Positions 1-18,053 of a stretch of DNA of 64,000 bases are shown piece by piece. Numbering within the stretch: position 1 is the stretch's first letter; each line of letters opens with the position of its first letter. Origin of the DNA: an uncultured Gemmatimonadota bacterium. Lineage in GTDB: Bacteria; Gemmatimonadota; Gemmatimonadetes; Gemmatimonadales; Gemmatimonadaceae. The notes beneath the pieces are model-generated. The model had not been told where the DNA came from and did no database searches. It worked only from the letters and a program-made list of their open reading frames with translations. The stretch covers positions 28,699 through 92,698 of the forward strand of contig CAIRYG010000004.1 of NCBI GenBank assembly GCA_903882745.1. Direction: 5' to 3'. A program made the position numbers and the translations under genes.

Positions 1-2259
1 TTCCACCACGTTGTGTCGGCGGGTGTCGTCGAGTGAGCCGAAGATCTCGTCGAGGACCAAGAGGGAGAACGACTGCCCCGCCCGCTCCGCAATCATCTGC
101 GAAATGGCGAGTCGCAACACGAGGTTCGCGAGATCTTCCTCACCACCAGAAATCACCGGCTTCGGCACACCGTCCTCGAGCACGACAATCCGGTACTTGT
201 CGTCGAGCTCCACCTCGGTGTAGCGCGCGTCCGTGAGCTCCGTCAAAAAGGCGCTCGCCAACTCCGACAGCTCAGGGCGCAACTGGAGATTGAGATCGTT
301 CCGAAGATCAGAATACGCGCGATGCAGCTCATCATGCAGGCGTTTTTCGTTCTCGCGCTCGGCGAGTTGGGCTTCGATCGCCTGCAACTCGGCTCGCGCT
401 TGGGTCGCCCGGGCGAGCGTGTCCGATGCTCCCTTTGCCTCGCCCTGCACGCTGACCGTACGGAGCGCCGACACGCGAAGCGCGGAATCGGCCGCTTGAA
501 AGGCGTCCCGAATTGCGACGAACTCCTCCTCCGTCCCCGGCACGTCCTGACGACGACGCACGATGTCCTCGCGACGCGTCACCAGCTCGGCAAGCTGACG
601 CGCCACCCCTGCTTCCTCGCGCGTGAAGGCCGCCTCTCGCTCGACCTGCCCCGCCAACCGATTCGCCTGCGCCGAGACCGCCGCGAGTTCCTCGAACTGT
701 TGTTCAAGCGACCGATGCTCCGCCGGGTCGTAGCCGCCAGGGATTTCCGCGAGCTGCAGCAGGAGTGCCTGATGGCGCTGCTCCTTGCTCGCGATATCGC
801 GTCCCATCCGCTCAAGATTCTGCACCGCTTGTTGTACACGCGCGAGTTTCTTTTCGAGCGCCGCATGCTCCAACTGGAGTGTCTTCCGGCGTTCATCGAG
901 CGCGGCGACATCCGCCGGCATCTCCTCGAGCTGATCGAGCCGGCTACGAAAATAATTCCCGTCGGTCTGTACTGTCTCGAGTTGCGTGTCGAGAAGGTCG
1001 AGCACCTGGCGGTAATGATCAAGCAGCGGGCGCTGGCAGGTCGGGCAGGTGCCCTGCTCGCCGAGGTTCACGAGGCGCTCGCGCTGATCTCGGAGGTCGG
1101 CATACTGCGCACGTAGCGCGTTGCGCTTGGTCTCTGCCTCCTGTCGATCACGCACCCATTCGGTGCGCCGGACCTCGAGCAAACCGTGCGCCGCTTCGAG
1201 CTCCTTGAACTTGGCCTCGATTAAGAGCGTGGTTTCCTCCTCGAGAATCGGGGCCGTGGAATAGCGATCGCGCTCCTGCCGAGCTGTTGCAAGATCCGCG
1301 CGCAGTTCCGATTCCTGTCCGCTCATCGTTTCGCGCTGCAGGTGCTTCGCCTGCAGCGCCTTCACCGCCCCAAGCTGCTGCTCGATTGCCGCAAACCCCT
1401 CGAGCTGCACCAGCATCGGCTCTAACGCGGCGCGCGCCTCGCGAATCTTTTGCAGTTCTGCCGCGACGCGCGCCGCATTCCGCCCTTGCTCGGCCAGCTG
1501 CGACTCGGTCACACGCAGGTCGGCGTCGAGCGTCTGCTGCAGATCGCGCAACTGCTGTGCTTCTGTCCACCGTGGGGCGATCGCGTCAAATGCACTCTGT
1601 GCCGTTGCGCGCTCCAACTCGGCCGAGGCGAGTCGGCCGTGCGCGTCCGCGAGCGCCGCCTGGGCGTCGAGTTCCTGTTTCGCGATTGTCGCCGCGTCCG
1701 GCATCCCAAGGCGCATCCCGGCGATGGTGCTGCGCAGATCTCGACGGCGCATCTCCACCAACTCTTGCGCGGCCCGAAGCTTCTCGTAGCCGAGCACGCG
1801 CGAGAGAAACTGCCCGCGCTCTGTTGCCGTGAGCGACGCCATCACCGTCAGCTCTTTTTGCCCGGTGAAGTACGTGTTGAAGAACTCACTCCGACTCATC
1901 CCGAGGCGACGCTGGAGCACGTCCCCAACCGCCGTGGCTGAGTTCGCGATGGCGTCCGCGCCGCCGTCGAGATACAGCTCCGCCATCGTGAGGCCGCGAA
2001 CGACGCGGTATTGGTGCCCGCCGAGCTCGAACTCGAGCTCTACCCGCACCTGAGCGCGCGCCGGTGCGCGCACAAAGCGAATGGTGTCCTTTCCGCCCCG
2101 CGCTGTGTCGCCGCCGTACAGCGCCCACGCCACGGCCTCGAGAATCGTCGACTTTCCGGCGCCGTTGGGGCCAATGATTCCCGTCAGGCCGCGCTCGAAC
2201 TCGATCGTGGTATCCGCGTGCTGACGGAAGTTCAGAAGCCGAATGCGTGTGAGTTTCAT
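1..2259 (-). CDS. sbcC: SbcC/Rad50-family DNA double-strand-break repair ATPase, partial (C-terminal end lies beyond base 1)
   Basis: Absent from the ORF track because no stop lies inside the window. My reverse-complement reading from ATG 2259-2257 gives MKLTRIRLLNFRQH. Motifs: Walker A GPNGAGKST (2146-2172), zinc hook CPTC (1036-1047), ABC signature SGGE (139-150), Walker B LVLDEIFGSLD (28-60). The frame stays open to base 1. Confidence 0.9.
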   Translation of the reverse strand, partial: MKLTRIRLLNFRQHADTTIEFERGLTGIIGPNGAGKSTILEAVAWALYGGDTARGGKDTIRFVRAPARAQVRVELEFELGGHQYRVVRGLTMAELYLDGGADAIANSATAVGDVLQRRLGMSRSEFFNTYFTGQKELTVMASLTATERGQFLSRVLGYEKLRAAQELVEMRRRDLRSTIAGMRLGMPDAATIAKQELDAQAALADAHGRLASAELERATAQSAFDAIAPRWTEAQQLRDLQQTLDADLRVTESQLAEQGRNAARVAAELQKIREARAALEPMLVQLEGFAAIEQQLGAVKALQAKHLQRETMSGQESELRADLATARQERDRYSTAPILEEETTLLIEAKFKELEAAHGLLEVRRTEWVRDRQEAETKRNALRAQYADLRDQRERLVNLGEQGTCPTCQRPLLDHYRQVLDLLDTQLETVQTDGNYFRSRLDQLEEMPADVAALDERRKTLQLEHAALEKKLARVQQAVQNLERMGRDIASKEQRHQALLLQLAEIPGGYDPAEHRSLEQQFEELAAVSAQANRLAGQVEREAAFTREEAGVARQLAELVTRREDIVRRRQDVPGTEEEFVAIRDAFQAADSALRVSALRTVSVQGEAKGASDTLARATQARAELQAIEAQLAERENEKRLHDELHRAYSDLRNDLNLQLRPELSELASAFLTELTDARYTEVELDDKYRIVVLEDGVPKPVISGGEEDLANLVLRLAISQMIAERAGQSFSLLVLDEIFGSLDDTRRHNVVE

Positions 2260-3482
2260 CCCTCCTCCACCGTGGAGGGGGCTTCGCGCACGACACCGGC
2301 CTGCTCCGCCTCGTGCAGATAATGCATCCCAAGCCGCACCATCTCTTCGCGGTCAATATCTGACGTCAGCTTGCGGGTGCGGAGATGATCGGCCAATAAC
2401 TCATCCAGCGACGGCCGGCGCCCTGGGGCGCCCGAGCCCGCCTCACGACGGAGGACCTCGGGACGTCGCATGTCGAGGTGAAACTGGAGCGCACTCCGCT
2501 GATACTCGCGCAGCTTTTTATGATCGAGTTCACGGGCGATGTGTCGCGGCACATCCCGCGCGACCAGTCGGATGACTTTCCCATCTATTCCGCCACTCAC
2601 CGCCGCGATCGCTGATTCGATCGCCGCATCGAGGTCGGCGGAGGACATCCCACGTCCTTCGATCGGCGACATATCGTGGAACTCGCGCACCAACTTGATC
2701 TTGTGCTGCTTCTGCTTGGCCGTCTCGAGGTCCCACTCGAGCATCCACTTTCCGGGCAGCTTCTGCGCGGTCTCCTCGGCGAGTTCACCCCACGGATTCG
2801 AGCTCGTATAGTCGATGGCGCCTGAGTAAAACGCCTTCGGCCCGACCTTCTTGTACACGTGGTAATCGCCGAGGGCGATATAGTCCCACCGCGGATCGTC
2901 GAGCACCGTGCGCGGAATGGTCAGGCCCACGCGCTCGGTGTGACGGGGAATCGAGTCTTCGACCTCGCCATGCACGAGCAACACGTTGAATCGCGCGTTT
3001 GGATCCTGATCGTAGTGAATCTCGTGCGGTGGGAGATCGGGAACGGCGAGAACCGAAATCGCACCGTCGCGCAGGGTGATGCGCTCCGGCTGGGTGTCGA
3101 CGATGTGAATCCCCAACGGGCGAAACAGCCGCAGGATGCAGGTCGTCTCGCTGGAGCGCGGCATGTCGTGGTTCCCCGCGACCATCACGACGTCGGTATC
3201 TGGCAGCGCCTGTGTCAGACGTTGCAGCTGCGTGAACGCGTGGATGATTGCCGGGTTCGTGGGGCGAACCGTGTGAAACACGTCGCCAGCAATCAGGATC
3301 AGCTCGGGCCGCACCGCGATCGCCATATCGATGGCTTGCCGGAACGACGCCGCGACATCCGCCTCGCGCTGGTTGATACCAGTCTGAGTCGTGCGCTGGA
3401 ACTGCCGGAAACCGAGATGCAGGTCGGAGAGATGCAGGAGCCGCACCCCTCTAATGTACGCGCGTTCAGCCTGCCGCGTCAC
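2256..3482 (-). CDS. sbcD: SbcD/Mre11-family nuclease (calcineurin-like phosphoesterase)
   Basis: 408-aa ORF with Mre11 phosphoesterase motifs LLHLSDLHLG, AGDVFH, VAGNHD, LLVHG. Its stop overlaps the sbcC start (ATGA, 2256-2259). GTG start at 3482. An alternative GTG at 3446 (VRLLHLSD) would give the usual short N-terminus. Confidence 0.9.
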   Translation of the reverse strand: MTRQAERAYIRGVRLLHLSDLHLGFRQFQRTTQTGINQREADVAASFRQAIDMAIAVRPELILIAGDVFHTVRPTNPAIIHAFTQLQRLTQALPDTDVVMVAGNHDMPRSSETTCILRLFRPLGIHIVDTQPERITLRDGAISVLAVPDLPPHEIHYDQDPNARFNVLLVHGEVEDSIPRHTERVGLTIPRTVLDDPRWDYIALGDYHVYKKVGPKAFYSGAIDYTSSNPWGELAEETAQKLPGKWMLEWDLETAKQKQHKIKLVREFHDMSPIEGRGMSSADLDAAIESAIAAVSGGIDGKVIRLVARDVPRHIARELDHKKLREYQRSALQFHLDMRRPEVLRREAGSGAPGRRPSLDELLADHLRTRKLTSDIDREEMVRLGMHYLHEAEQAGVVREAPSTVEEG

Positions 3483-3491
3483 CGCTAGCGC

Positions 3492-5444
3492 CTAGAAGCT
3501 ATACGGGTCGTCCGGGGGGCTGCTTTTCAGCGGGGCGACCCGCGCGCGCGACTCCGTGGACTTTGGCGCGACCCGACGCTTCAACTGCGAGCGGAAATAG
3601 CTCTTGACGTCCTCGGGTTTGGCCATCTGCGTCTTATTGCGGGCACGGATGACTTCGTCCTCCTCGGCCAGCGCGATGCTCTCCTTGACCCAATCGAGGG
3701 TCACCGAGGGATCCAGCACCCGAAGCGCGCGGGTCACCGCACTCTCCAGGGTCTGTTCCAGCGCCTGGGGAAACTTCTCAACCCCTTCGCGACCGGAGAG
3801 CACCGCCGGGCGCGGGAAGCGTACGAACACCGGCTGCGTGAAGTGCGGATGTCGCACCATCAGCTGCCCCTTCTCGAGCGTACTCAGCTTCGTACGGGTC
3901 GCCGGGGAGAGCGTGGCGTAGCCAGGGGTCGCCAGCTCGTCGGGGTCCATCCGCCCGAAGAGTGCCGTCCCGCAGTTCCCCACCACACGACGGTGCACCT
4001 GCGACCGAAACTGCTGCGCAGCGAACAGCACGAGCCCCAAATACCGGCCGCGCTCGGCGATATCGAGCAGCATGGCCCGCACGTAGGTGTCGGGGCCATC
4101 ACTCGGCGCGTACTTGTTGAGTTCGTCGACGAACACCACGACGTGATCGACCCCGAGGGTGCGCGACTCAAGACGCTCACGCAGCTGCGACACGATGCGC
4201 GCGAAAATCAAATCCTGCGCGTCTTCCTCAAGATTCGCGACGTCCACCACGTACACGGCGCGATCCTCAAACGCCCCAAACGGCAGATCGCTCACCGTCC
4301 CGTCGTCGGTCACCAGTCCACGGCAGCGCGTGGAAATATTCGTGAGACGATTCCGCACTTTGCGGATCGTGGCCACGTGGTGCGTCCGCCACGACTCCTG
4401 ATTCTTGGCCTCCATCCCATGCAGCAGATCGCGGAACCATCCCTCCAGCTCCCCAAATGACTGCACCGTGTGGTCGTGCTCAAGCACCGAATCGGAGAAG
4501 GGTTGATCGACCACCCGTTCCTTGATGAAGTCGATCAGCGCATCGGCCTTGGCGTCGATGTCGTCCTTGTTGAGCAACACCTCCGCAAACTGCAGCACCT
4601 CGCGCAGTCCCCAGGTGAGCGGATGCACATTGTGCGCCAGCGCTTCGTTCGAACGCAGCGTGTTGAGCGCATACCCACGCGCCGTGTACGGCGCGTAGTA
4701 GTGCACATTCTGGAACGGCTCGGCGGGAACCCCCAACGTCTCGTAGAGCGCGCGGTCCGAGTCGTCGAGTCGCGTAGCGGGTTGATCGAGGAAACAGAGA
4801 TCCGGACCCTTCACGTTGAAGCAGACCGCCGCGACGCGCCCCTTCTTTTCGGGGAAGTGGGCAAAGATCGAGGCGAGCAACCACTCCACGGCACTGGTCT
4901 TGGTCGCGAGCCCCGAGACGCCGCTGATGTTCAAGTGTGCCGCTTCGGGACCAAGCAGAAAATCGGCGTCGAGATGCACCGGCGACGAGGTCGCCCCGGC
5001 ACGGTACAAGCCCACGGGAATCGCCGTCTTGTTCTCACCAAAGGCGTAGCCGTCCATCCGGAGCGCAGCCGCCACATCCGCATCGTCGGCTAGATGCACC
5101 GTTCCCATGCCCACGGGCTGCAGCGGCTCCTCGGGGACATGACGCAACACCGCCGCCGTGTACAAGCGGATCTCGGTGCGGCGCGTTGGCGACTGATGCG
5201 CGCTCCCCGGCTGGCCGTCATGCCCCAGCACGTCGTGCAGCGGTGTATCCAGGTCCGTGTAGCCGAACCCTTCCGTCACCACGCCGAACGCCACGGGGAG
5301 CGCGCCGTTCACGGGGGTGGCACCTTCCACCCGCACAATCGTCCCGATCCCGACGGGCGAATCGAGCGCCGTCCAGAAATGGAATTCGTGTGGTGTGTTG
5401 GGACGTCGCTCCGTGGCGACAACGCGGCCGAGGACGGTGGTCAT
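3492..5444 (-). CDS. herA: HerA-like ATPase (FtsK/HerA superfamily, DUF87-type)
   Basis: ORF 3492..5648 trimmed to ATG 5444 because the upstream gene stops at 5458. The N-terminus MTTVLGRVVATERRPNTPHEFHFW looks like a HerA barrel domain. P-loop region GVSGLATKTS (4893-4922). Walker B HVVVFVDELNKYAP. Confidence 0.8.
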   Translation of the reverse strand: MTTVLGRVVATERRPNTPHEFHFWTALDSPVGIGTIVRVEGATPVNGALPVAFGVVTEGFGYTDLDTPLHDVLGHDGQPGSAHQSPTRRTEIRLYTAAVLRHVPEEPLQPVGMGTVHLADDADVAAALRMDGYAFGENKTAIPVGLYRAGATSSPVHLDADFLLGPEAAHLNISGVSGLATKTSAVEWLLASIFAHFPEKKGRVAAVCFNVKGPDLCFLDQPATRLDDSDRALYETLGVPAEPFQNVHYYAPYTARGYALNTLRSNEALAHNVHPLTWGLREVLQFAEVLLNKDDIDAKADALIDFIKERVVDQPFSDSVLEHDHTVQSFGELEGWFRDLLHGMEAKNQESWRTHHVATIRKVRNRLTNISTRCRGLVTDDGTVSDLPFGAFEDRAVYVVDVANLEEDAQDLIFARIVSQLRERLESRTLGVDHVVVFVDELNKYAPSDGPDTYVRAMLLDIAERGRYLGLVLFAAQQFRSQVHRRVVGNCGTALFGRMDPDELATPGYATLSPATRTKLSTLEKGQLMVRHPHFTQPVFVRFPRPAVLSGREGVEKFPQALEQTLESAVTRALRVLDPSVTLDWVKESIALAEEDEVIRARNKTQMAKPEDVKSYFRSQLKRRVAPKSTESRARVAPLKSSPPDDPYSF

Positions 5445-5457
5445 TTCTGAAAATACC

Positions 5458-6486
5458 CTAGGGCGCGATAGCGCGCAGATAGCGCTCGCAGTCCGCAATC
5501 CCGTACGCCATCGTGTGCCAGCGCTGATCGGGGAGCGCCAACGGGGTGCGCTCCGCAAGCACCCACCGCGAGACCTCGTCGGCGCGCTCGGCGGTAAACG
5601 TGTCCCGGGCGACCTCAATGCGCACCAGCGCGAACATCGGATCGCCACCGTCGCGGAGGCGGAGGTACCAGCTCGCGACCGCGGTGCGTCGCGCCGAGCG
5701 GATTTCGAAAGCAGTGGTTCGCTGCCCCGCGCGTAGGCGGGTGATCACCCCGACGCCGTCACCGGAGGCGTAGAGGGTCCGGTGAGACTTCACGACGCCC
5801 ACCGCGTGAGGGCTGCGCGCGGCAAGCCCGGCCCCGGAGATTCCGCCGTCTACATAGACCGACTGATCGCGCGTCGCACACCAGCGCTCCGCGAGCGAGG
5901 TCTCCAGCCGTTCGCGCTCGCGCTGGACCGCCGTCCGCGCGAGCGTGAGCAACAGCTGCGGATGCTGACCGTCGGAGGCGTCGGCCCCGTCGAGCGTGTC
6001 GTGCACGGGGATTCCAGCCGCGTCGAAGGTGCGGAGATGCTCCGCCGGCGTCAACGCGGTGGGTACGTAGACGCGCGTCGATAGGTCGGGCTCGCCGTTC
6101 CACGTGTGCAACTCCCGGTCGCGGCGTTCACGCACCACCGCCGCAACGGTCCCAAAAATCAGCGGCACGCCACCTGGGAGATACTGCAGCACGCGAGTGG
6201 ACTGAATGCCGTCGAGGAACGCATGAAAGCCGGCGAGCGGCTCGGCATCCAACACCCGATACGACAGCGCTTCCCCTTCTATGGGGAGTGCCGCCTCGAG
6301 GCGTGGCGGTTCCATCTCGAGCGCCATACGCTCAAGCGACGGGGCACCGGTGGTTTCGAGACGCCAGCCTCCCTCAGGCGCTCCGGGCGCCGCACGGAGC
6401 GCGCGCAGTACGTCGGCAACGCCCACGGCGGTCACGCCAACGGCCGTCACGCCAACGGCACCGGCGCCGTCAGCCGCGGGGGCCAT
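5458..6486 (-). CDS. NurA-like nuclease (putative); start uncertain
   Basis: ORF 5458..6654 trimmed to ATG 6486, which shares one base with the upstream stop (TGATG). The assignment rests on position directly upstream of herA, size (about 342 aa) and Asp-containing motifs FLDGIQS and YVDGGISG. There is no textbook signature, so product confidence is moderate. Confidence 0.55.
   Translation of the reverse strand: MAPAADGAGAVGVTAVGVTAVGVADVLRALRAAPGAPEGGWRLETTGAPSLERMALEMEPPRLEAALPIEGEALSYRVLDAEPLAGFHAFLDGIQSTRVLQYLPGGVPLIFGTVAAVVRERRDRELHTWNGEPDLSTRVYVPTALTPAEHLRTFDAAGIPVHDTLDGADASDGQHPQLLLTLARTAVQRERERLETSLAERWCATRDQSVYVDGGISGAGLAARSPHAVGVVKSHRTLYASGDGVGVITRLRAGQRTTAFEIRSARRTAVASWYLRLRDGGDPMFALVRIEVARDTFTAERADEVSRWVLAERTPLALPDQRWHTMAYGIADCERYLRAIAP
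6426..6455 (-). repeat. 15-nt in-frame tandem repeat x2 (plus a degenerate third copy to 6470) encoding GVTAVGVTAVGV
   Basis: cggcggtcacgccaa / cggccgtcacgccaa read directly. It lies in the N-terminal region of the NurA-like ORF. Confidence 0.8.
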
Positions 6487-6764
6487 CACTCGATCCCGAT
6501 ATCCCAGGCCTGCTCGAGGTCCGCCTTGGAATACGCGCGGAACGCTGTGAGCGTCGTGGTGCGCTGAATGCCGGGCACCTCCGGAAACTGCTCGGTGACA
6601 ATGCGCGCAATGTCCTCGTACTGCGGCACTTTCACCATCACCACAAGATCCCACTCACCAGACACCGAGTACACCTCGGCCACACCGTCAATGCCCGCGA
6701 GCGCGTGGGCGCACTTGGGAATCAGGCGCGGCTCGGCTTTTACCAGCACGATGGTCGTAATCAT
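6486..6764 (-). CDS. Stand-alone Lrp/AsnC ligand-binding (RAM) domain protein, no HTH domain
   Basis: 92-aa ORF MITTIVLVKAEPRLIPKCAHALAGIDGVAEVYSVSGEWDLVVMVKV..., the typical AsnC_trans_reg beta-alpha-beta-beta-alpha-beta pattern. It is too short to carry a DNA-binding domain. Confidence 0.8.
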   Translation of the reverse strand: MITTIVLVKAEPRLIPKCAHALAGIDGVAEVYSVSGEWDLVVMVKVPQYEDIARIVTEQFPEVPGIQRTTTLTAFRAYSKADLEQAWDIGIE

Positions 6765-6867
6765 GTCGCGTCAGGGAACGGAGAAAGCTGCAGGAACCGC
6801 GGAGGAGCAACCGACAGGGGACTGATGGAGCGATCGGATCACATCAGGAACGTGGCGGACGACAGGA

Positions 6868-8082
6868 TCAGCCCGTTCCTTCCAGCACCGCACGGTACGT
6901 CTTCACCAGCATGTGCATCGCGCGCTCTACGTCGGACTGATCGGCCGCATAGGAGACGCGCACCCACTCTGGTGTGCGAAACGCCGATCCCGGAACGATC
7001 GCCAAACCGGCTTCGTCGAGGAGTCGCGCGCAGAATGCGTCGCCGTCGCTGATTCCGCCCGGCGCCGCTGGCGCCCGCAGAAACAGGTAGAACGCGCCCT
7101 GCGGGTCGAGCACCTCAATACGAGGCTCTTGGCGCAGAATCGCCAACGCCGCGTCACGGCGGGCATGGAACGCCGCGACCATCGCATTCACCGCAAGGTC
7201 GGCTTCGTCCACGCGCGCGAGCGCAGCCAATGCCGCGTGCTGCGACACCGTAGCCGCGTTCGAGGTCGTGTGCGACTGAAACGCCGTCATCGCTTTTGCG
7301 ACAGCCGGCGACGACACCGTCCACCCAATCCGCCACCCGGTCATCGCGTATGCCTTCGCCACGCCGTTGATCACCACGAGCCGATCGCGAACGGTCGCCA
7401 CATCAAGGGCCGACACCGCCGGCCGATCGTAGGCGATGCGCTGGTAGATCTCGTCGCTCAGGACGTACCAGCCACGGCTGGTGGCCAGATCGAGAATGGC
7501 GCGAAGCTCTTCGGGGGCGTACACCGACCCGGTGGGGTTCGACGGAGAGTTCAGCATAATGCCCTTCGTGCGCGCGGTCGCACGCGCTTCGAGGAGCAGC
7601 GGCGTGACCTTGAACCCGTTGGACGGGTCGCCGAGCACTTCAACCGGTGTGGCGCGAGCCAACTCGACCATCTCGTAGTAGCTCGTCCACGCGGGCGTTG
7701 GGACGAGCACCTCGTCGCCGGGTCCAAAGAGGCAGACGCAGGCATTGTAGAGCGACTGTTTGGAACCGGTCGACACCACCACATCGGTCGCCAACACACG
7801 CCCAGCGCCGGTATACCGCGCATTGGCGTGATCAGCGATGACCTGACGCAGCGGGAGAATCCCGTCTACGGCGGTATAGCGGGTGGCCCCCGCCTCAAGC
7901 GCGTCGACCGCCGCCTGCCGAATAAACGCCGGCGTGTCGAAGTCCGGTTCGCCCGCCCCCAAGTCAATGATCGTGCGCCCAGCCGCCTTCAGCGCCTTGG
8001 CCTTTTGGGAGACGGCAATCGTTGCCGACTCACGAAGCTGAGCGATGTTCTGGGACGGCACGAACGGGGTGGCTGACGACAT
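6868..8082 (-). CDS. Class I PLP-dependent aminotransferase (aspartate aminotransferase family)
   Basis: ORF 6868..9321 trimmed to ATG 8082 (MSSATPFVPSQNIAQL). Motifs LNSPSNPTG and the PLP-lysine region NGVAKAYAMTGWRIGW. The part upstream of 8082 is antisense to the next gene and low-complexity. Confidence 0.9.
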   Translation of the reverse strand: MSSATPFVPSQNIAQLRESATIAVSQKAKALKAAGRTIIDLGAGEPDFDTPAFIRQAAVDALEAGATRYTAVDGILPLRQVIADHANARYTGAGRVLATDVVVSTGSKQSLYNACVCLFGPGDEVLVPTPAWTSYYEMVELARATPVEVLGDPSNGFKVTPLLLEARATARTKGIMLNSPSNPTGSVYAPEELRAILDLATSRGWYVLSDEIYQRIAYDRPAVSALDVATVRDRLVVINGVAKAYAMTGWRIGWTVSSPAVAKAMTAFQSHTTSNAATVSQHAALAALARVDEADLAVNAMVAAFHARRDAALAILRQEPRIEVLDPQGAFYLFLRAPAAPGGISDGDAFCARLLDEAGLAIVPGSAFRTPEWVRVSYAADQSDVERAMHMLVKTYRAVLEGTG

Positions 8083-8148
8083 TTTAAGACTCAGCTTTGG
8101 GGGCGGTAAGCAAGCGGCGGTGCCACTCGCTAGATTTACTGGCTGAAG

Positions 8149-9765
8149 GTGAAGGATATCCCTGCGGCGCACGCCGCGCCATTGACATCTGAGGTAGCAG
8201 TGACTGAGCAAGAACGCGAAACGGCCGGAGCCGTACGTAGCACAAATGTGGCCCATTTCCTCGCCCCCGACTGGACCCAGGTGGCCCAGCGCGCCGCGGG
8301 CGCCCTTGAACGCATCGACCGTGAGCGCGCTGTTGTGCAGCTGCTGGTCGTTGTCCCCGATGACGAAGCCGCCGACAGCGTCTCCCGCGAGCTTCGCCTC
8401 CTCACTGCCGCCCACGGCGTAGCCATTGTCCCGGTTACGAGCTCCGCACGCGCCGGCCGCATGCTCAAGGCTGGCCCCGCGCACCTGCTCGTCGGGCGCG
8501 CCCGCGCCTTGGCGGACCTCCTTCCCGACTCGACGCTGAAGCTGGCTGACGTCTCGGCGGTGATCCTGGTCGCCGCTGACGAGCTCGAGCCAGAGGCGGA
8601 CGCCCTGTCGACGCTCATGGCCGAAGTCCCCAAGAAGGGGGCCCGGATGCTGCTGGCGGCCGACGCCACGCCGTTCGTCGAAAGCCTGCTCGAGCGCTAT
8701 CTGCACCGCGCCCGTCGTATGGCCGATTCGACTCCCGAGCCGCTCCCCCTCCCCGAGGGCACGCCGCCGACGATCTCCGTGATCGCCACCCAGGCGGGCA
8801 AGCCGTTGGCTCCGCTCGCGGGGCTCTTGGACGACATCGACCCGCCCTCGATCGCCATCGTCGTTGGCGATGCCCGGGACGAAGGACGTGCCCGTGCCGC
8901 CCTCGAAGCGCTCGGCTATCCGACCGACTCGTCGCTCGTGGCCGTGACCCGCGGTGATGTGACGCTGCACACCGCGCTCGTGATCTTCGCCGGCCTTCCC
9001 GACGCCGCGCAGCTCCGCGCCGCCTTCGGGGCGCATCCGGCACGCATGGTGGCGCTTGTCACGACCCGCCAGCGCAAGACGCTCGCCGAGCGTGCGGTGG
9101 GCGCCAAGATCGTCCCATACGACCGCACGCGTTCCGCGCGCGCGGCCCGTGCTCGCGAGGACGCCACCCGAGCGGCCCTGCAGCAGGTGCTCGACCGCGG
9201 CCTGTCCGTGCGTGAAGTCTTGGCGCTGGAGCCGATGCTCACCGAGCACGACGGCCTGTCGATTGCCGCGGCCGCGCTGCGGCTCTACGAGGAGGCCCGT
9301 GAGGCCACCGCCGCCGCCCATGCGGCTGGCCGCGAGGAACTGCGCCTCGAGATCAAGGCTCGTGCCGATGCGGCAGCCGCCGCGGAGCGTGCCGAGCGTC
9401 CCAAGGACAATGGCCCGCCGCGGAAGTCGTTCGGCGACCGTGGTGGTCGTGGGGGCCCGCGTCCGAGCTTCGGTTCGGGCCGTCCGTCGCGCCCGAGTTT
9501 CAATGACGACCGTGGCGAGCGCGCCCCCCGTGGCGATCGTCCGGAACGGTCGGATCGTGGCGAGCGTCCGCCGCGCAGCGATGCGCGTCCGAGCTTTGGC
9601 GATCGCCCGAGTGCCCCGCGTGGCGATCGTCCGAGCGCGCCGCGCGGTGACCGTCCGAGCGCGCCGCGTGGCGACCGGCCCGGGAGTTCTGACCGTGGTC
9701 CGCGTAGCGACGATTCGCGAGGGCCCCGCAAGTTTAGCCCGCGCGGCCCGCGCAAGTCGCCGTGA
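8149..9765 (+). CDS. DEAD-box-helicase-like protein with degenerate ATPase motifs and an R/G/P/D-rich C-terminal tail
   Basis: 538-aa ORF. It is colinear with the DEAD-box layout: VVVPDDEAA at the motif Ia (PTRELA) position, VLVAADELE at the DEAD position, LLAADAT at the SAT position. No GSGKT P-loop, ARGxD or HRIGRTGR motif is present. GTG 8149 is the longest start. GTG 8200, preceded by GAGG, is a better-looking start. Confidence 0.7.
9598..9681 (+). repeat. 24-nt in-frame tandem repeat, about 3.5 copies, encoding GDRPSAPR
   Basis: ggcgatcgcccgagtgccccgcgt / ggcgatcgtccgagcgcgccgcgc / ggtgaccgtccgagcgcgccgcgt / ggcgaccggccc... read directly. Confidence 0.9.
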
Positions 9766-10418: not shown

Positions 10419-11018
10419 ATGCGAGTCATCGGCCTCACCGGAAACATTGCGAGCGGCAAGAGCACCGTGGCGCGCCTCCTCGCAGACCGTGGCGTGCCGA
10501 TTATCGATGCCGATGTCCTCGCCCGCGAGGCCGTCGCTCCGGCGACCCCTGGGCACGCAGCCATCACGGCGCGCTGGGGCGCCGCCGTTCTTGCTGCCGA
10601 CGGCACCATCGACCGAGCCGCACTCCGACACATCGTCTTTGCCAACCCGGACGAGCGCGCCGCCTTGAATGCCATCGTCCACCCCGAGGTCGCGCGGCGG
10701 CGGCACGATCTGGTCGAAGCGGCCCGCGCCCGCGGCGAGCGAATTGTGGTGTGCGACATCCCCCTCCTCTTCGAGACGGGACTCGAGCGTGAGTGTGACG
10801 CCGTGCTGCTGGTCGACGCGCCGGAGGAGCTCCGACGCGATCGCCTCGTGCGCGACCGCGCCCTCAGCGCCGAGGAGGCGACCGCCATGATTCGCGCGCA
10901 GCTGCCGGCCGAACAGCAGCGGGCTCGGGCCGACTGTGTGCTTCAGAATGCCGGCACCCTCGAGGAGCTACGTAACCAGCTCGACCGCGCTTGGGCACAG
11001 ATCGACCCAAAAACTTGA
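10419..11018 (+). CDS. coaE: Dephospho-CoA kinase
   Basis: MRVIGLTGNIASGKSTVARLL, IIDADVLAREAV, 199 aa. Confidence 0.9.
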   Translation: MRVIGLTGNIASGKSTVARLLADRGVPIIDADVLAREAVAPATPGHAAITARWGAAVLAADGTIDRAALRHIVFANPDERAALNAIVHPEVARRRHDLVEAARARGERIVVCDIPLLFETGLERECDAVLLVDAPEELRRDRLVRDRALSAEEATAMIRAQLPAEQQRARADCVLQNAGTLEELRNQLDRAWAQIDPKT

Positions 11019-11112
11019 ACATCTATGGGCCGGCCGGTATGCTTCCCCTCGTACCGACTACCACGGCGCCGCCCATCGCTGCACGGACGCGCCCCTGACA
11101 TCAAGGACTCCC

Positions 11113-11508
11113 GTGTCGAATATCCCAGCCGACCTCCGCTATACCGATGATCACGAGTACGTGAAGAGCACAGCTGACGCTGCGGTAGTCATCGTGGGCA
11201 TCACGCACTACGCACAGGACCAGCTCGGCGACATGGTGTTCGTCGATCTCCCGAAGGTTGGCCAGAAGTTCGGCGCGCACGAGTCGTTCGGCACCGTCGA
11301 GGCAGTGAAGGCGGTGAGCGACCTCTTCACCCCGCTCGCGGGCGAAGTGGTCGAGATCAACACCCGCCTCAACGACGAACCGGCGCTCGTGAACTCGGAC
11401 CCGTACGGCGACGGCTGGATGATCAAGATGAAGGTCGATGCCGCCGCGGTCGCCGGCCTGCTCGACGCCGCCGCCTACACGGCGCACCTGGCCAGCACGG
11501 GCCACTAA
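11113..11508 (+). CDS. gcvH: Glycine cleavage system H protein
   Basis: ORF 10936..11508 trimmed to in-frame GTG 11113 (VSNIPADLRYTDDHEYV). Lipoyl-lysine motif GTVEAVKAVSDL, DPYGDGWMIKM. Confidence 0.9.
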   Translation: MSNIPADLRYTDDHEYVKSTADAAVVIVGITHYAQDQLGDMVFVDLPKVGQKFGAHESFGTVEAVKAVSDLFTPLAGEVVEINTRLNDEPALVNSDPYGDGWMIKMKVDAAAVAGLLDAAAYTAHLASTGH

Positions 11509-11530
11509 GCCCGTCGGCACCGAATGTGAG

Positions 11531-11564
11531 AAGGGGCGGCCCCGCAACTGCGGGGCCGCCCCTT
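11531..11564. terminator. Bidirectional stem-loop between convergent gcvH and gcvP
   Basis: aaggggcggccccgc-aact-gcggggccgcccctt, a perfect 15-bp stem with a 4-nt loop. Confidence 0.75.
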
Positions 11565-11584
11565 CATCGTATCACGAACGCCGC

Positions 11585-14452
<2,868 letters not shown>

Positions 14453-14586
14453 GTTCGGACTCCTGTAGCGGAGCGCGCAGACGCTCCGGATGGACGCGGA
14501 ACAGGTGACAAATGACAACACCAAAAGATAATAGGTGGAGCGCAAAGAGGCGTTGGCTTGCCCCGGTTCCGTGGTAGATTCCGCGC

Positions 14587-15345
14587 ATGTGGCGTTTCCT
14601 TGTGACCGAACCGGCCTTCGCCGCGGCAAACATGGCGCTCGACGCGGGGCTTCTCGACCGTGCGGCCGCCACCGGCGAGTCGGTGCTACGCCTGTACAGC
14701 TGGGCGGTCCCGACGCTCTCCTTTGGCCGGCACGAATCGGTCGCGGGCCTGTTTCGCGCCGAGGATCTTGCGGCCGCGGGTATGGAGGCGGTGCGCCGAC
14801 CGACGGGCGGACGGGTGCTCCTGCACGATCACGAGGCCACGTACAGTGTGTCGGCCCCAGTTGTGGAGGGTGAGCCACTCAAGGCCAGCTATGCCCAGAT
14901 CAACGCGCTCTTAGTGGCAGCCCTCGGGCGACTGGGGGTCGACGCCGCAGAAGCGCCGGCGAGCCCCGTCCGGCGCCCTGGAGGGGCCGCCTGCTTCGCC
15001 GAGCCCAATGCTGGCGAGCTGGTGGTGCATGGCCGCAAGCTGGTTGGGAGTGCGCAGTTCCGAGAGCGCGGCGCCTTAGTGCAACACGGGTCGATTCTCT
15101 TTGCCGACGACCAGTCGCGGATCACGGCCCTCGCCCGGCGTCCGATGACTCCCAGCATTCCCGCGGCAGCGCTCGACGACCTGCTCGGTCGGTCCGCCAG
15201 CCGTGCCGACGTCGCGCAGGCACTCCGGTGGGCCCTGGAGCAGCAGGGTGAAACTGTCGAGGTCCTGGAGCCCGACGACGCCTGGCAGTGGGCCGCGCCA
15301 CATCGCGCGCGATACGAAAGCCCGGAGTGGACGTGGCGGCGGTAG
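14587..15345 (+). CDS. Lipoate-protein ligase / octanoyltransferase family protein (BPL_LplA_LipB catalytic domain only)
   Basis: [12 protein letters not shown] and GRKLVGSAQ (catalytic Lys) motifs. At 252 aa it lacks the LplA C-terminal accessory domain. Divergent from gcvP. Confidence 0.8.
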
Positions 15346-15384: not shown

Positions 15385-17055
15385 ATGCGACGTCGATTGG
15401 TGCGGCTTATCGGAACGGGGAGCATGCTCGCGATCGCCGCGTGCAGCGGGCGCGAAGGTTCGGGCGGCGGCACAGTCATTGTCGCCCTCGGTGCGGACAC
15501 CAAGTCGCTCTTCCCCCCGGTCGCGGCGGGAACCGTCCAGGGGCGCGCAATGGTCGAACCAATGTTCGACCCCCTCGCCGAGTTGGGCGCATCACTCTCT
15601 ACGGTGGATGTTGCGAGTTTCGCCCCGCGACTCGCGCAATCGTGGACCTGGAGCGCCGACTCGCTCACCGTGACCTTCACACTCGACCCGCGCGCACGCT
15701 GGCACGACGGCGCACCGGTGCGAGCCGCCGACGTGCGACTCGGCTACGACATTGCGCGTGATCCCGCGAGCGGCTCGAGCACAGTGGCCGACCTGTCCGC
15801 GGCTGTGGATGCGGTCACGGTCGTCGACTCACTGCACGTCGCCGCGCACTTCTCGCACCGTTCGCCCGAGCAGTTCTATCAGTTCGTCGCGTCGTTCGTG
15901 CCGCTGCCCTCGCACCTGCTTGGCGCCATTCCGCACGACTCACTTGCGACCTCCGCATTCTCGCGCGCACCGGTCGGAAGTGGTCCCTTCCGGTTCGTGT
16001 CGTGGAAGCAGGGCGAGCGGTTCGAGATGGCCGCTGTCGACACATTCTATCGCGGACGCGCCAAGCTCGACCGCGTGATTTTCTCGGTGAACGGTGACCC
16101 GTCGACGCTCGCCAAACAGCTGTTCGCAGGCGAGGCAGACTTCTATGAACTGCTTCCCGCGTCGGAAGTGGCGACGGCCGCCACAAAAAAAACGGTGCAG
16201 CTCATTCGCACCCCGTCGATGAACTACGCGTTTCTGCAGTTCAACCTGCACGACGGCGCAAGCACCAAACCCCACCCCGTGCTCGGCGACGCAGGTGTGC
16301 GTCGTGCGCTCGCGATGGCAGTCGACCGTCGCGCGATGTTACAGAATGTGTTCGAGGGCGCAGGCCGCCTCGCGATGGGCCCCTTCTCGAGCATGCAGTG
16401 GAGCGCCGACAGCACCCTGCGCCAACCACGCTTTGATCGCACCGCCGCCGCCACCTTGCTCGACTCACTCGGCTGGAAAATCGGCGCCGATGGCACGCGC
16501 GCGAAAAACGGACATCCACTTGCATTCAGTATCATCGCCGCGAGTAGCAGCAAACCGCGCCAACAGTACGCGCAGTTGATTCAGGAACAACTCCGCCAGA
16601 TCGGCGTGAAGGTCGAGGTCGAGGTCATGGATCCGCCCGCGATTGGCGCAAAGGTGACGTCGCACACGTTCGACAGCTTCATTCAGAATCTGACGGCAGG
16701 GCGCAGTCCGGTGGGGGGCCTACATCAGACTTGGTATAAGGGCTCGACTGGCCCCGGCGGCTTGAACTTCGGCGGCTACGCGAGCGCCGCCGTCGACCTC
16801 CAGGCCGACAGTGCCTTCAGCGCCCTCACCACGACCGACGCACGCCGGCATTACCGTGCGGTGTATCAGCAGATCATCGATGATGCGCCGGCGATCTTCC
16901 TGTTCGAGCAGCCCACGATCTCCGGTGCACACACGCGCCTAGTGACCGGAGCACTGCGTCCGGGCGCCTGGTGGAAGTCGATTGAGCAGTGGGCCATTGC
17001 GCCCGGTGGGCACCTGCCGCGCGATATTCCGCGCGACGCGCCGCCCAAGAGCTGA
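15385..17055 (+). CDS. ABC transporter substrate-binding lipoprotein, family 5 (peptide/nickel type)
   Basis: Lipobox LAIAACSG, 556 aa, family-5 SBP-like sequence (FRFVSWKQGERFEMAAVDTFYRG), followed by two permease and two ATPase genes. Confidence 0.85.
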   Translation: MRRRLVRLIGTGSMLAIAACSGREGSGGGTVIVALGADTKSLFPPVAAGTVQGRAMVEPMFDPLAELGASLSTVDVASFAPRLAQSWTWSADSLTVTFTLDPRARWHDGAPVRAADVRLGYDIARDPASGSSTVADLSAAVDAVTVVDSLHVAAHFSHRSPEQFYQFVASFVPLPSHLLGAIPHDSLATSAFSRAPVGSGPFRFVSWKQGERFEMAAVDTFYRGRAKLDRVIFSVNGDPSTLAKQLFAGEADFYELLPASEVATAATKKTVQLIRTPSMNYAFLQFNLHDGASTKPHPVLGDAGVRRALAMAVDRRAMLQNVFEGAGRLAMGPFSSMQWSADSTLRQPRFDRTAAATLLDSLGWKIGADGTRAKNGHPLAFSIIAASSSKPRQQYAQLIQEQLRQIGVKVEVEVMDPPAIGAKVTSHTFDSFIQNLTAGRSPVGGLHQTWYKGSTGPGGLNFGGYASAAVDLQADSAFSALTTTDARRHYRAVYQQIIDDAPAIFLFEQPTISGAHTRLVTGALRPGAWWKSIEQWAIAPGGHLPRDIPRDAPPKS

Positions 17056-17057
17056 CG

Positions 17058-18053
17058 TTGTTCCGGTTCCTGCTCGGTCGCCTCGCGCAATCCGCGCTGG
17101 TGCTGGGCCTCGCGGTGTCCGTGGTGTTCGCGCTCTTGCGTGCGGCACCAGGAGATCCGTTGAGCGGGAGCACACTCGACGCAACCACCGCGCCGGCCAC
17201 GCGAGAGCTGCTGCGTCGCCAGTACGCCCTCGACCGGCCGCTCCTCGAGCAGTACGCGCACTTTGTCGGGAGCGCACTGCGCGGTGAACTCGGGATGTCG
17301 CTGTCGCGGGGCCGTCCCGTTGCCCAGGTGCTGCGCGATGTCGTGCCCAATACCGTGCTGTTGATGGGCACTGGACTCTTCCTTGGAATCCTCGGCGGCA
17401 TTGCACTGGGCGCCTGGCAGGGGAGTCGCGACACCCGCAGCTCCGCCACATCCGCGCGCGTCGCGCGCATGTCCGAGCGGATCGGTCTCGCGATCATCGC
17501 CACCCCCGAGTACATCGTCGCCACGGCGATGCTGACACTCTTTGCCGCCACCTGGCGACTCTTCCCGATTGGTGGAATGGTGAGTCTTGGCGTGCACGAC
17601 TCCCTGGGACCCGTCGCGCAGGCGGGCGACGTGCTCTGGCACCTCACACTCCCCGCGCTGACGCTCGCCCTGATCGTGGGCGCCGGCGTCGCGCGCTATC
17701 AGCGCACCGAGATGCGCCTCGTACTCGCGCGGCCGTTCATCCGCACCGCGCGCGCCAAGGGCGTACCCGAAGCGCGCGTGCTGGTGCATCACGCGCTACG
17801 CAACGCCCTCGGCCCCGTGATTACCCTGTGCGGACTCTTGCTGCCGTCGCTGGTCGGCGGCGCGGTGTTCATTGAGGCAATCTTTGCATGGCCTGGCATG
17901 GGGCGCACGATGGTCGAAGCCGTCACCGGTCGCGACTATCCGCTCGCGATTGGCGCGGTGATCGTGTCGAGTGTGTTGGTCGCGCTCGGGGGCCTGCTGG
18001 CCGATGTCGCCGCAGCGGTTGCCGACCCGCGACTCGTTCGAGGGCGTCGATGA
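17058..18053 (+). CDS. ABC peptide transporter permease (DppB/OppB-like)
   Basis: ORF 16989..18053. I favour the in-frame TTG at 17058, just after the SBP stop (17053-17055), giving M-FRFLLGRLAQS. Multi-pass membrane protein. The exact start is uncertain. Confidence 0.85.
   Translation: MFRFLLGRLAQSALVLGLAVSVVFALLRAAPGDPLSGSTLDATTAPATRELLRRQYALDRPLLEQYAHFVGSALRGELGMSLSRGRPVAQVLRDVVPNTVLLMGTGLFLGILGGIALGAWQGSRDTRSSATSARVARMSERIGLAIIATPEYIVATAMLTLFAATWRLFPIGGMVSLGVHDSLGPVAQAGDVLWHLTLPALTLALIVGAGVARYQRTEMRLVLARPFIRTARAKGVPEARVLVHHALRNALGPVITLCGLLLPSLVGGAVFIEAIFAWPGMGRTMVEAVTGRDYPLAIGAVIVSSVLVALGGLLADVAAAVADPRLVRGRR

Follow-up and report, generated by a model that had tools for sequence, protein, structure and literature searches.

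A phylum-wide nurA-herA-sbcD-sbcC cluster in Gemmatimonadota as a probable chromosomal module for DNA end processing

In the archaea Sulfolobus, Pyrococcus and Thermococcus, the activities of HerA, Mre11, Rad50 and NurA are encoded together in an operon with the order herA-mre11-rad50-nurA. Archaeal HerA has been shown to bind Mre11 (PMC2288612). In Deinococcus radiodurans, where nurA precedes herA (DR_0836/DR_0837; PDB 7F6D, 7WRW and 7WRX), the NurA-HerA pair (DrNurA, DrHerA), with which NurA-HepA of Thermus thermophilus is grouped, resects DNA ends in vitro, and the nuclease activity of NurA requires D53, K201 and R309 (PMC9960219). In Deinococcus and Thermus, this pair is not located next to sbcDC. 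In D. radiodurans, the resistance of knock-outs to UV and MMC was raised approximately 10-fold (PMC9960219), and "repair" may therefore be too simple a description of what bacterial NurA-HerA does in vivo. The order nurA-hepA-sbcD-sbcC was noted earlier in Oceanithermus profundus, and was read by its authors as an archaeal-like double-strand break (DSB) repair architecture (Blesa et al. 2017, PMC5448004). A HerA-family hexameric ATPase with an adjoining nuclease or effector gene is likewise part of the defence-type pairs TdpAB, SIR2-HerA/Nezha, DUF4297-HerA and PADLOC mad8.

The locus described here is part of a window of 64,000 nucleotides, the whole stretch of DNA that was analysed. This window belongs to the core chromosome of an uncultured Gemmatimonadota bacterium, and genes for DnaE, a UvrD-like helicase, MetRS, ATP synthase, GcvP/H, TK and CoaE are present in it. 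The host is a mesophilic soil or water bacterium. Five tightly packed open reading frames (ORFs) are found on the minus strand in the order RAM-nurA-herA-sbcD-sbcC (Table 1), and a check of ORFs and junctions agreed with the initial annotation in all coordinates, overlaps and gaps. The TGA stop of the RAM gene and the ATG start of nurA share base 6486 (...GAG TGATG GCC..., a 1-nt overlap), nurA and herA are 13 nt apart (ggtattttcagaa), herA and sbcD are 9 nt apart, and sbcD and sbcC overlap by the 4-nt ATGA at 2256-2259. The longest possible ORFs of nurA (398 aa) and herA (718 aa) reach upstream into the preceding genes, and the shorter starts are preferred because the lengths of the homologues agree with them. 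Homologues of each of the five products number in the thousands and the gene order is kept in 80 other genomes, which places the cluster far beyond chance.

Table 1. Positions of the cluster genes and adjoining features in the window
Feature	Coordinates	Strand	Evidence
sbcC/rad50 (5' 753 codons; runs past window start)	1..2259	-	Pfam, NCBIfam, PDB, motifs
sbcD/mre11 nuclease gene, 408 aa, GTG start	2256..3482	-	Pfam, NCBIfam, PDB, motifs
herA, bacterial-type HerA hexameric dsDNA translocase/ATPase (predicted), 650 aa, TAG stop	3492..5444	-	phmmer, AlphaFold and Foldseek
Part of HerA C-terminal extension, residues ~586-650	3495..3689	-	AlphaFold model, C-terminal tip conservation
nurA, bacterial-type NurA nuclease (predicted), RNase H-like fold, 342 aa, TAG stop	5458..6486	-	Profile and fold match
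15-nt tandem repeat x2.7 in nurA N-terminus	6419..6459	-	TRF
Stand-alone RAM (Lrp/AsnC ligand-binding) domain gene, 92 aa	6486..6764	-	Pfam AsnC_trans_reg, 2djw match
103-nt spacer, aminotransferase gene to RAM gene	6765..6867	-	Non-coding gap
Class I/II aminotransferase gene	6868..8085	-	Pfam Aminotran_1_2 1.2e-74

The NurA-like product has no match in Pfam, NCBIfam or PADLOC, and the HerA product has none in Pfam; the NurA and HerA/DUF87 models of Pfam, by which the initial annotation had proposed to check its calls, thus match neither. The assignment to NurA, regarded there as the weakest one, is supported by profile and predicted fold. A profile of 80 NurA-like homologues had D. radiodurans NurA as its top PDB match (7f6d_H, E=2e-4), and all five Foldseek matches of the AlphaFold model (pLDDT 87.7, pTM 0.87) with E<=1e-3 are NurA-type chains: 7f6d_G (6e-12), 1zup_A/B (5e-11 and 1e-10), 2ygk (3.6e-7) and 8wfd_G (1e-5), the last being TdpB, a NurA-fold protein. 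The motifs FLDGIQS and YVDGGISG are present, and D92, D213, K233, D320 and R322 are invariant among the 80 homologues. Both D213 and K233 align with DrNurA, in which, with an inferred 20-residue tag offset, the aligned counterpart of K233 would be K201. The N-terminus is poorly conserved and modelled with low confidence (pLDDT<50 for residues 1-17), and contains GVTAV repeats.

The identification of the next product as HerA is clear from sequence and model. Its match to D. radiodurans HerA reaches E=3.5e-44 in a phmmer search of PDB (7f6d_B) and 8e-41 by fold (7wrw_A, TM 0.69/0.77; model pLDDT 85.2), followed in Foldseek by archaeal HerAs (~1e-24 to 1e-21) and defence HerAs (~1e-18). The motifs quoted for HerA are all present in the translation, namely the N-terminal GRVVATE..FHFW, Walker A GVSGLATKTS and Walker B VVVFVDELNKY, with K182/T183 and D440/E441 invariant.

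The motifs of the remaining two products were also recovered, and their assignment is borne out by family and PDB matches. SbcD contains the phosphoesterase motifs DLHLG, GDVFH and GNHD, plus GDYH, and matches Pfam Metallophos (9.6e-10), NCBIfam Mre11_Sulfo (1.9e-19) and TIGR00619 sbcd (1.1e-18; 68 bits, slightly below the cut-off of 77.65). SbcC contains GPNGAGKST (Walker A), a CPTC hook, SGGE and LLVLDE (Walker B), and matches Pfam AAA_23 (4.8e-22), SMC_N and SbcC_Walker_B; as its relatives have 806-842 aa (median 818), about 65 C-terminal residues are estimated to be missing from the window. By sequence comparison, the nearer relatives of both proteins are archaeal Mre11/Rad50 and not E. 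coli SbcCD: the best PDB match of SbcD is archaeal Mre11 (3auz, 4.2e-12) versus 1.7e-5 to 5.5e-5 for E. coli SbcD (4lty, 6s6v), and SbcC matches archaeal Rad50 PRK03918 at 1.6e-43 versus 1e-21 for TIGR00618 sbcc, with Methanocaldococcus jannaschii Rad50 (5f3w, 8.7e-26) as its best PDB match.

Compared with the archaeal operon, nurA stands first and beside herA, so that the order differs, as had been pointed out, and follows the bacterial nurA-herA order. The structures of archaeal NurA and HerA are significant fold matches, whereas the two Gemmatimonadota proteins are of the bacterial type, with 10-16% identity to the archaeal proteins. HerA is 28-29% identical to that of D. radiodurans, and NurA has the same RNase H-like fold with only ~16% identity; the Walker A/B motifs and the NurA Asp/Lys residues are conserved. 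Relative to DrHerA, the protein is extended by a C-terminal helical module of ~90 aa, which leads through a disordered linker to a conserved DDPY[GA]F tip. In the model, this extension (~560-650) is a small helical bundle (helices at 566-619) with a linker at 625-643 (pLDDT<50) and the acidic-aromatic tip DDPYSF. Almost all of the 78 Gemmatimonadota HerAs carry the form D-[DE]-P-Y-[GA]-F at their very C-terminal end, and it was not found in the short defence-island HerA relatives.

Conservation of the cluster was surveyed in 80 GTDB species representatives, the best-matching Gemmatimonadota species, and in all of them it occupies the same chromosomal position between the same housekeeping neighbours. 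In all informative loci (67/67), herA is followed by a co-directional sbcD, with sbcC coming after it in 54/54, and nurA directly precedes herA in 68 of the 72 loci. By these comparisons, the four-gene cluster is conserved throughout the phylum and vertically inherited. The cluster is less novel than the initial annotation implied, because it is common within Gemmatimonadota and sbcD-sbcC after nurA-herA is known from O. profundus (PMC5448004), a bacterium of a different phylum, Deinococcota, with the identical four genes in identical order. The sbcDC linkage in O. profundus probably arose independently, since its HepA, 66% identical to Thermus HepA, falls in the DrHerA-like branch. Elsewhere, the P0241 locus has consecutive genes for a 342-aa NurA-like protein, HerA, Metallophos and SMC_N, and P0265 and P0287 represent a separate clade that also has the nurA-herA/Mre11-Rad50 linkage. 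The cluster is thus a solid, unsurprising extension of a known system, and the literature searched contains no experimental characterisation of a Gemmatimonadota member.

With an order conserved across the whole phylum, co-expression and a functional link of the four genes are almost certain. The spacing of -4 to +13 nt between them, together with the co-directional sbcD-sbcC after herA in all informative relatives, implies co-transcription in the host genome and makes translational coupling probable. Long-range synteny is general in the phylum, with the aminotransferase gene upstream and a GNAT acetyltransferase gene downstream, and therefore adjacency within the phylum alone overstates functional coupling. 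Of the single co-translated machine proposed earlier, the linkage of the four genes stands; strict stoichiometric co-translation is not a conserved requirement, as an unrelated signal-peptide gene separates herA and sbcD in 45/74 relatives. Promoter- or terminator-like sites show no excess inside the cluster: there are eight, where 5.2 +/- 2.2 would be expected, and each of them is weak and lies within a gene. The one candidate promoter location is the 103-nt spacer, the sole non-coding gap >13 nt in this string of genes. A search of it for sigma-70-like and terminator-like sites found none, and an alignment with 11 relatives showed no conserved block.

The cluster is probably a vertically inherited chromosomal module for DSB end processing. 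By analogy with the homologues studied in D. radiodurans and archaea, SbcDC of the Mre11/Rad50 type would recognise a DNA end or hairpin, tether it via the zinc hook and trim it. A HerA hexamer would then, with ATP, thread the duplex through its central pore into a NurA dimer, and NurA would separate the strands and degrade the 5' strand, leaving a 3' tail for RecA.

Repair and defence had both been suggested for this cluster, and the evidence favours the former. A role against phages or plasmids, with HerA/NurA-like proteins, an SMC-like ATPase and a phosphoesterase as in TdpAB, SIR2-HerA, DUF4297-HerA, Lamassu and MADS, could explain the partial PADLOC matches of HerA (mad8, 1.3e-9; defence "HerA" models, 4.6e-5) and SbcC (LmuB, 1.5e-24; mad3, 2.7e-22), and the match of the NurA model (E=1e-5) to TdpB, a component of the TdpAB defence complex. 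Distant NurA-like/HerA relatives (30-38% identity) do occur in defence-island or mobile contexts, next to restriction enzymes, HATPase_c_3, Schlafen, PLD-helicase, an N6_Mtase/Eco57I enzyme or an integrase. However, the SbcC matches are due to the shared ABC/SMC head, and the HerA fold is far closer to DrHerA and archaeal HerA than to the defence HerAs. A neighbour-joining tree places Gemmatimonadota HerA with long (643-685 aa) chromosomal HerAs and the short defence-island forms elsewhere. The cluster lies in the core chromosome without a methyltransferase or other modification gene, SIR2, DUF4297 or another effector, and among plasmids it has just six distant matches (25-33% identity) and none that is close. 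Its constant place in all 80 species also contrasts with the patchy spread of defence islands, and a defence role is very unlikely. It is also unlikely that the module serves mainly another DNA transaction, such as the clearing of hairpins or protein-blocked ends from replication forks, chromosome segregation or DNA pumping, or DNA uptake and transfer. Such roles have been suggested for members of the FtsK-HerA family and for Thermus HepA and TdtA. In favour of this reading, the expected repair defect was not seen in bacterial nurA/herA knock-outs (PMC9960219; PMC5448004), in one relative ssb comes after herA and nurA is missing, and another is in a mobile-element context. Yet the cluster is devoid of membrane, conjugation or division genes, and the Mre11/Rad50 linkage, which is found independently in archaea and in no fewer than three bacterial lineages, points to DNA-end chemistry.

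The RAM gene (AsnC_trans_reg, 4.8e-15, 55.7 bits versus a cut-off of 25; no HTH) had been placed at the head of the operon, and this part of the proposal is not upheld. As a genuine regulatory subunit of the machine, or as its ligand sensor, co-translated with NurA, it would couple resection to an amino-acid or metabolite signal, and the stop/start overlap in the window would fit this, as would the direct contact with nurA in 21/51 loci, eight of them with a 4-nt overlap. In the other 30, genes intervene, such as small-molecule methyltransferases (L019) or, in a close relative, an opposite-strand lipoprotein-like gene (L002). The deeper Gemmatimonadales and Longimicrobiales loci retain nurA-herA-sbcDC, but no RAM gene was found close to it there, nor in the P0241 or P0265 loci. 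The RAM gene instead tracks the co-directional aminotransferase gene immediately upstream, which it always follows, at <1 kb in 28/28 loci with both. This fits the usual role of Lrp/AsnC-type RAM domains in amino-acid metabolism, and a subunit role is improbable. On this comparative evidence, RAM is a variable neighbour inherited with the aminotransferase gene, its conserved partner outside the repair module, and not a constant component of the end-processing module; in the host lineage it came to adjoin nurA and is probably co-transcribed with it. Stand-alone RAM-domain proteins are also known from Thermus thermophilus (2DJW, 92 aa, Lrp/AsnC fold without a DNA-binding HTH), which matches over the full length with E=1.3e-15, and from Pyrococcus (2CVI and 2E1A, 75 aa). 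What sets a subset of Gemmatimonadaceae apart is the place of the gene directly before nurA, with overlapping stop and start codons.

The four genes nurA, herA, sbcD (mre11) and sbcC (rad50) form a phylum-wide, vertically inherited, though not rigid, arrangement in Gemmatimonadota. This was observed in a survey with one genome per GTDB species, in which at least 596 relatives of HerA were recovered; the 80 best matches are all from Gemmatimonadota, with HerA identities of 62-83%. The proteins of the window were placed in these best 80 loci by tblastn, and the fractions given here are loci with the feature among informative loci. sbcD lies downstream of herA in the same direction in 67/67 loci, sbcC is downstream of herA in all 54, the spacing between sbcD and sbcC is below 200 nt in 68 of 68, and nurA is located directly upstream of herA in 68/72. 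A gene of ~270 aa is found between herA and sbcD in 45 of the 74 loci (46 by tblastn), including most Gemmatimonadaceae; its product carries a signal peptide, matches DUF6263 only weakly and below threshold, and is unrelated to the cluster. The window and its nearest relatives do not carry this gene, hence the 9-nt herA-sbcD junction. In addition, 56 relatives have a GNAT acetyltransferase gene directly 3' of sbcC and in the same orientation; in the source genome, this gene would lie just past the window start. As the aminotransferase gene upstream and the GNAT gene downstream are also conserved, adjacency within the phylum alone is no proof of function. The initial annotation had proposed such a neighbourhood survey and allowed that the cluster might turn out to be common and already characterised. 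It is indeed common within Gemmatimonadota, and a bacterial precedent has been published, but the cluster of this phylum is uncharacterised.

In the window, five tightly spaced minus-strand reading frames are read within 1-6764, with junction spacings of -1, 13, 9 and -4 nt from RAM through nurA, herA and sbcD to sbcC. This reading reproduces exactly the layout and junctions of the initial annotation, and all the motifs listed there are found in the translations. The full-length sbcC relatives encode 806-842 aa, so ~65 codons are missing from the sbcC of the window. A promoter and terminator consensus scan across the cluster gave nothing above background, such scans being weak evidence for this phylum, and an alignment of 12 loci contained no conserved regulatory motif in the spacer between the aminotransferase gene and RAM.

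Coordinates of features in the window and in loci from the survey, each in its own sequence
Sequence	Feature	Coordinates	Strand	Remarks
Window	sbcC	1-2259	-	753 codons visible; leaves the window start just beyond the Walker B motif
Window	sbcD	2256-3482	-	GTG start; ATGA overlap with sbcC at 2256-2259
Window	herA-like	3492-5444	-	650 aa; then 9-nt gap to sbcD
Window	HerA C-terminal extension	3495-3689	-	residues ~586-650, within an extra module of ~90 aa
Window	nurA-like	5458-6486	-	342 aa; then 13-nt gap to herA
Window	15-nt tandem repeat x2.7	6419-6459	-	GVTAV repeats
Window	RAM	6486-6764	-	92 aa; TGA stop and nurA ATG have base 6486 in common
Window	aminotransferase gene	6868-8085	-	immediately upstream of RAM
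Window	ORF	8149-9765	+	538 aa; divergent from the aminotransferase gene
Window	24-nt repeat x3.5	9597-9682		GDRPSAPR repeats
Window	gcvH and gcvP, adjacent	10936-14878	gcvH +, gcvP -
Window	ARAGORN tRNA-like call	16746-16838	-	two-base anticodon 'gg'
L019	~270-aa gene between herA and sbcD	~11990-12792	+
L019	GNAT acetyltransferase gene	16470-17441	+
L081	NurA-like/HerA pair	7001-9746
L082	NurA-like/HerA pair	6838-9662
L083	NurA-like/HerA pair	6856-9659
L085	HerA homologue with ssb gene next	5821-8471

The stand-alone RAM gene was first read as the head of the operon, a role that the survey does not bear out, as only the other four genes are kept together. Its product matches the Pfam family AsnC_trans_reg (PF01037; 55.7 bits, cut-off 25) over residues 6-76 of 92, the HTH is absent, and the protein aligns over its full length with the 92-aa stand-alone Thermus RAM protein 2DJW (E=1.3e-15). 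RAM precedes the cluster in 39/55 informative loci and abuts nurA in only 21 of 51, eight of which have a 4-nt overlap. In L002, a close relative with a HerA identity of 78%, RAM and nurA are separated by a lipoprotein-like gene on the opposite strand, and in the Gemmatimonadota locus L019 this position is taken by two small-molecule methyltransferase genes. By tblastn, no RAM was detected near the cluster in the Gemmatimonadales and Longimicrobiales loci of 62-65% identity. In 28/28 loci, RAM follows the aminotransferase gene downstream at a distance of less than 1 kb. This constancy, next to the variable position relative to nurA, identifies RAM as a companion of the aminotransferase gene and not as a conserved part of the end-processing machine. 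In this genome, it has become fused to the front of nurA and is probably co-transcribed with it.

The NurA assignment was considered the weakest link of the initial annotation and is now accepted on profile and predicted-fold matches, although the Pfam NurA model gave no match. At E<=0.1, no family was found for this protein in Pfam, NCBIfam or PADLOC. A phmmer search of the PDB with the single sequence ranked the NurA of Deinococcus radiodurans (DrNurA) first at a non-significant E=0.12, and a profile of 80 homologues again gave DrNurA as the top match (E=2e-4, ~70 residues), which is weak but specific. The AlphaFold model (pLDDT 87.7, pTM 0.87) has five Foldseek matches at E<=1e-3, all of them NurA-type chains: DrNurA 7f6d_G (6e-12), chains A and B of Thermotoga TM1739 1ZUP (5e-11 and 1e-10), Sulfolobus NurA 2YGK (3.6e-7) and the NurA-like TdpB subunit 8wfd_G (1e-5). 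The TM-scores of only ~0.5 in these fold matches point to a divergent member. Residues D92 (FLDGIQS), D213 (YVDGGISG), K233, D320 and R322 are invariant across the 80 homologues; D92 is placed on strand 89-103 of the predicted structure, and D213 and K233 align with DrNurA in the single-sequence alignment. Cleavage by DrNurA requires D53, K201 and R309 (PMC9960219). K233 would correspond to K201, provided that the deposited chain has a 20-residue tag, and D92 and R322 would be the counterparts of D53 and R309. The gene adjoins herA in the window and is also adjacent to it in more distant lineages. In the N-terminus of the protein, which is poorly conserved and predicted with low confidence, a short tandem repeat gives rise to repeats of GVTAV.

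For HerA, the assignment is confirmed by sequence and fold matches to Deinococcus radiodurans HerA (DrHerA), though the Pfam models, including HerA/DUF87, gave no family at E<=0.1. The NCBIfam model HerA_Thermprot scored 18.2 bits, far below its cut-off of 800. The match to DrHerA (7f6d_B, E=3.5e-44) consists of two stretches spanning residues 97-556, and similarity at this level is judged to outweigh the absent model match. The curated HerA models do not extend to this bacterial branch. In the AlphaFold model (pLDDT 85.2), a HAS-barrel, a RecA-like ATPase and an inserted helix bundle are predicted, and the best Foldseek match is DrHerA 7wrw_A (E=8e-41, TM 0.69/0.77 over 614 columns). This is followed by archaeal HerAs at ~1e-24 to 1e-21, and the SIR2-HerA and DUF4297-HerA defence forms reach only ~1e-18. 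The Walker A motif GVSGLATKTS (K182, T183) and the Walker B motif VVVFVDE (D440, E441) are invariant among 37-50 diverse relatives.

Unlike DrHerA and the defence-type relatives, the HerA of Gemmatimonadota carries a C-terminal extension. It belongs to an extra module for which the AlphaFold model predicts four helices (566-619), a disordered linker (625-643) and an acidic-aromatic tip at the extreme C-terminus. The tip D-[DE]-P-Y-[GA]-F is conserved in the phylum; the window has DDPYSF, and DDPYGF is present in 27 relatives. The C-terminal tail of SSB ends in DDDIPF, and the tail architecture and tip of HerA look similar. By this analogy, the tip could be a docking peptide for a partner, and it is a concrete handle for interaction work. 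The locus L085 encodes a HerA of 44% identity without nurA upstream and with an ssb gene after it.

The SbcD and SbcC (Mre11/Rad50) assignments also hold up in motifs, Pfam and PDB matches. SbcD contains the phosphoesterase motifs I-V (DLHLG, GDVFH, GNHD, the H in LLVHGE, and GDYH) and matches Pfam Metallophos with 39.6 bits (cut-off 21.5). It scores below the curated cut-offs of TIGR00619 sbcd (68.0 vs 77.65) and Mre11_Sulfo (70.2 vs 500), and by its PDB Mre11 matches at 4e-12, it is best described as a divergent Mre11/SbcD. SbcC has the Walker A motif GPNGAGKST, a coiled coil with a CPTC zinc hook at ~residue 404, the SGGE signature and the Walker B motif LLVLDE, and it exceeds the cut-offs of Pfam AAA_23, SMC_N and SbcC_Walker_B. 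Its C-terminal head with the D-loop and H-loop would lie outside the window, as the gene is cut after Walker B. Both proteins are more similar to archaeal Mre11/Rad50 than to the SbcCD of E. coli: the Methanocaldococcus jannaschii structures of Mre11 (3AUZ) and Rad50 (5F3W) match SbcD at 4e-12 and SbcC at 9e-26, respectively, E. coli SbcD matches only at 1.7e-5 to 5.5e-5, and E. coli SbcC is not among the PDB matches of SbcC at E<=1e-5. Also, in NCBIfam, SbcC matches archaeal-type Rad50 PRK03918 at 1.6e-43 and TIGR00618 sbcc at 1e-21. The occurrence of archaeal-like SbcD/SbcC beside a bacterial, Deinococcus-like NurA/HerA hints at a mosaic origin of the cluster.

A functional argument for the linkage comes from its recurrence in other lineages. 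In a small sample of contigs from other phyla, inspected one by one and without taxonomy, the lineage of P0241 (56% identity) has the identical set of four genes, and in the separate clade of P0265 and P0287, herA is followed by sbcD. In P0248 and P0252, which represent the nearest sister lineages, only the nurA-herA pair is found. In archaea, herA, nurA, mre11 and rad50 form a classic operon. For Oceanithermus profundus, sbcD-sbcC downstream of nurA-hepA was published in 2017 (PMC5448004), hepA being the name of herA there. The components, the mechanism and the gene order in a bacterium are already known, and the finding is incremental; the Gemmatimonadota cluster is an uncharacterised, phylum-wide case of a known type of system.

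By homology, the Mre11/Rad50-type complex would bind, tether and trim DNA ends, after which a HerA hexamer would drive the duplex into a dimer of NurA that would part the strands and degrade the 5' strand (PMC9960219). A physical hand-over is plausible, given that archaeal HerA binds Mre11 (PMC2288612). In D. radiodurans, knock-outs of nurA or herA show more, not less, resistance to UV and MMC (PMC9960219), and this is a caveat on the assumed physiological role of bacterial NurA-HerA. The Deinococcus authors expressly left the connection of SbcCD to HerA-NurA open (PMC4663267), and with regard to the in vivo role of bacterial NurA-HerA, the phenotypes of the Deinococcus and Thermus knock-outs are paradoxical. 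A whole bacterial phylum that keeps the four genes together, with reading frames that overlap or almost abut in the window and in the relatives nearest to it, is strong comparative evidence for the connection. A more far-reaching reading, which we offer tentatively and consider rather unlikely, is that Gemmatimonadota run an archaeal-style resection, in which bacterial-type NurA-HerA is tied to archaeal-like Mre11-Rad50 as the main route for double-strand breaks, possibly replacing RecBCD/AddAB, with the SSB-like tip DDPY[GA]F of the phylum-specific HerA extension recruiting a partner, which could be Mre11/SbcD, NurA or a protein that interacts with SSB. If true, this reading would supply the genetic connection of bacterial NurA-HerA to SbcCD that is listed as a question in the Deinococcus literature. 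With cultured mesophilic Gemmatimonas, such as G. phototrophica (L061 in the survey), the link is testable genetically outside extremophiles.

The initial annotation had also allowed for a role against foreign DNA. Distant NurA-like/HerA pairs with 30-38% HerA identity do occur in the setting of defence islands or mobile elements, the upstream gene of these pairs encodes a homologue of the NurA of the window (E 1e-44 to 4e-13), and partial PADLOC matches to mad8, mad3 and LmuB were obtained for the cluster. However, the cluster is kept across the phylum at one chromosomal site, it is surrounded by housekeeping genes, and effector or modification genes are not present. In a rough NJ tree, its HerA joins the long chromosomal HerAs, away from the short defence-type forms, and its predicted fold is much nearer to DrHerA and archaeal HerA than to defence HerAs. 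MADS, Lamassu, SIR2-HerA, DUF4297-HerA and TdpAB gave only partial single-protein matches in the cluster, and none of their signature partners (the methyltransferase/kinase set, LmuA, SIR2, DUF4297 or the phosphorothioate-sensing TdpAB pair) was found in or next to it. A plasmid search with HerA returned six distant matches and no close relative, with no sign of mobility for this type. A defence system is thus very improbable, and the processing of DNA ends in repair is the preferred reading. The distant pairs at L081 (near REase-ARP, an SMC-like ATPase and an integrase), L082 (near a HATPase_c_3 protein, Schlafen and a PLD-helicase) and L083 (near a 1074-aa N6_Mtase/Eco57I enzyme), with HerAs of 552-581 aa, may themselves be uncharacterised NurA/HerA-based defence systems.

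Homologues with named sources assign the window to uncultured Gemmatimonadota/Gemmatimonadaceae. The remaining window is core chromosome and encodes Pol III alpha, a UvrD-like helicase, MetRS, ATP synthase beta, a 2-oxoacid dehydrogenase, GcvP/GcvH, thymidine kinase, CoaE and the aminotransferase. Nothing relevant emerged from scanning the window for Rfam families and tRNAs: no glycine riboswitch or other Rfam family was found at threshold anywhere in the 64 kb, despite the adjacent gcvH and gcvP, and an odd ARAGORN tRNA-like call is, with no Rfam match in the window, probably a false positive. For the 538-aa ORF that diverges from the aminotransferase gene, Pfam gave no match at 1e-5, and a reading as a DEAD-box helicase was dropped for this reason. 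The C-terminus of the ORF product is rich in Arg, Gly, Asp and Pro, and includes the GDRPSAPR repeats encoded by the 24-nt repeat.
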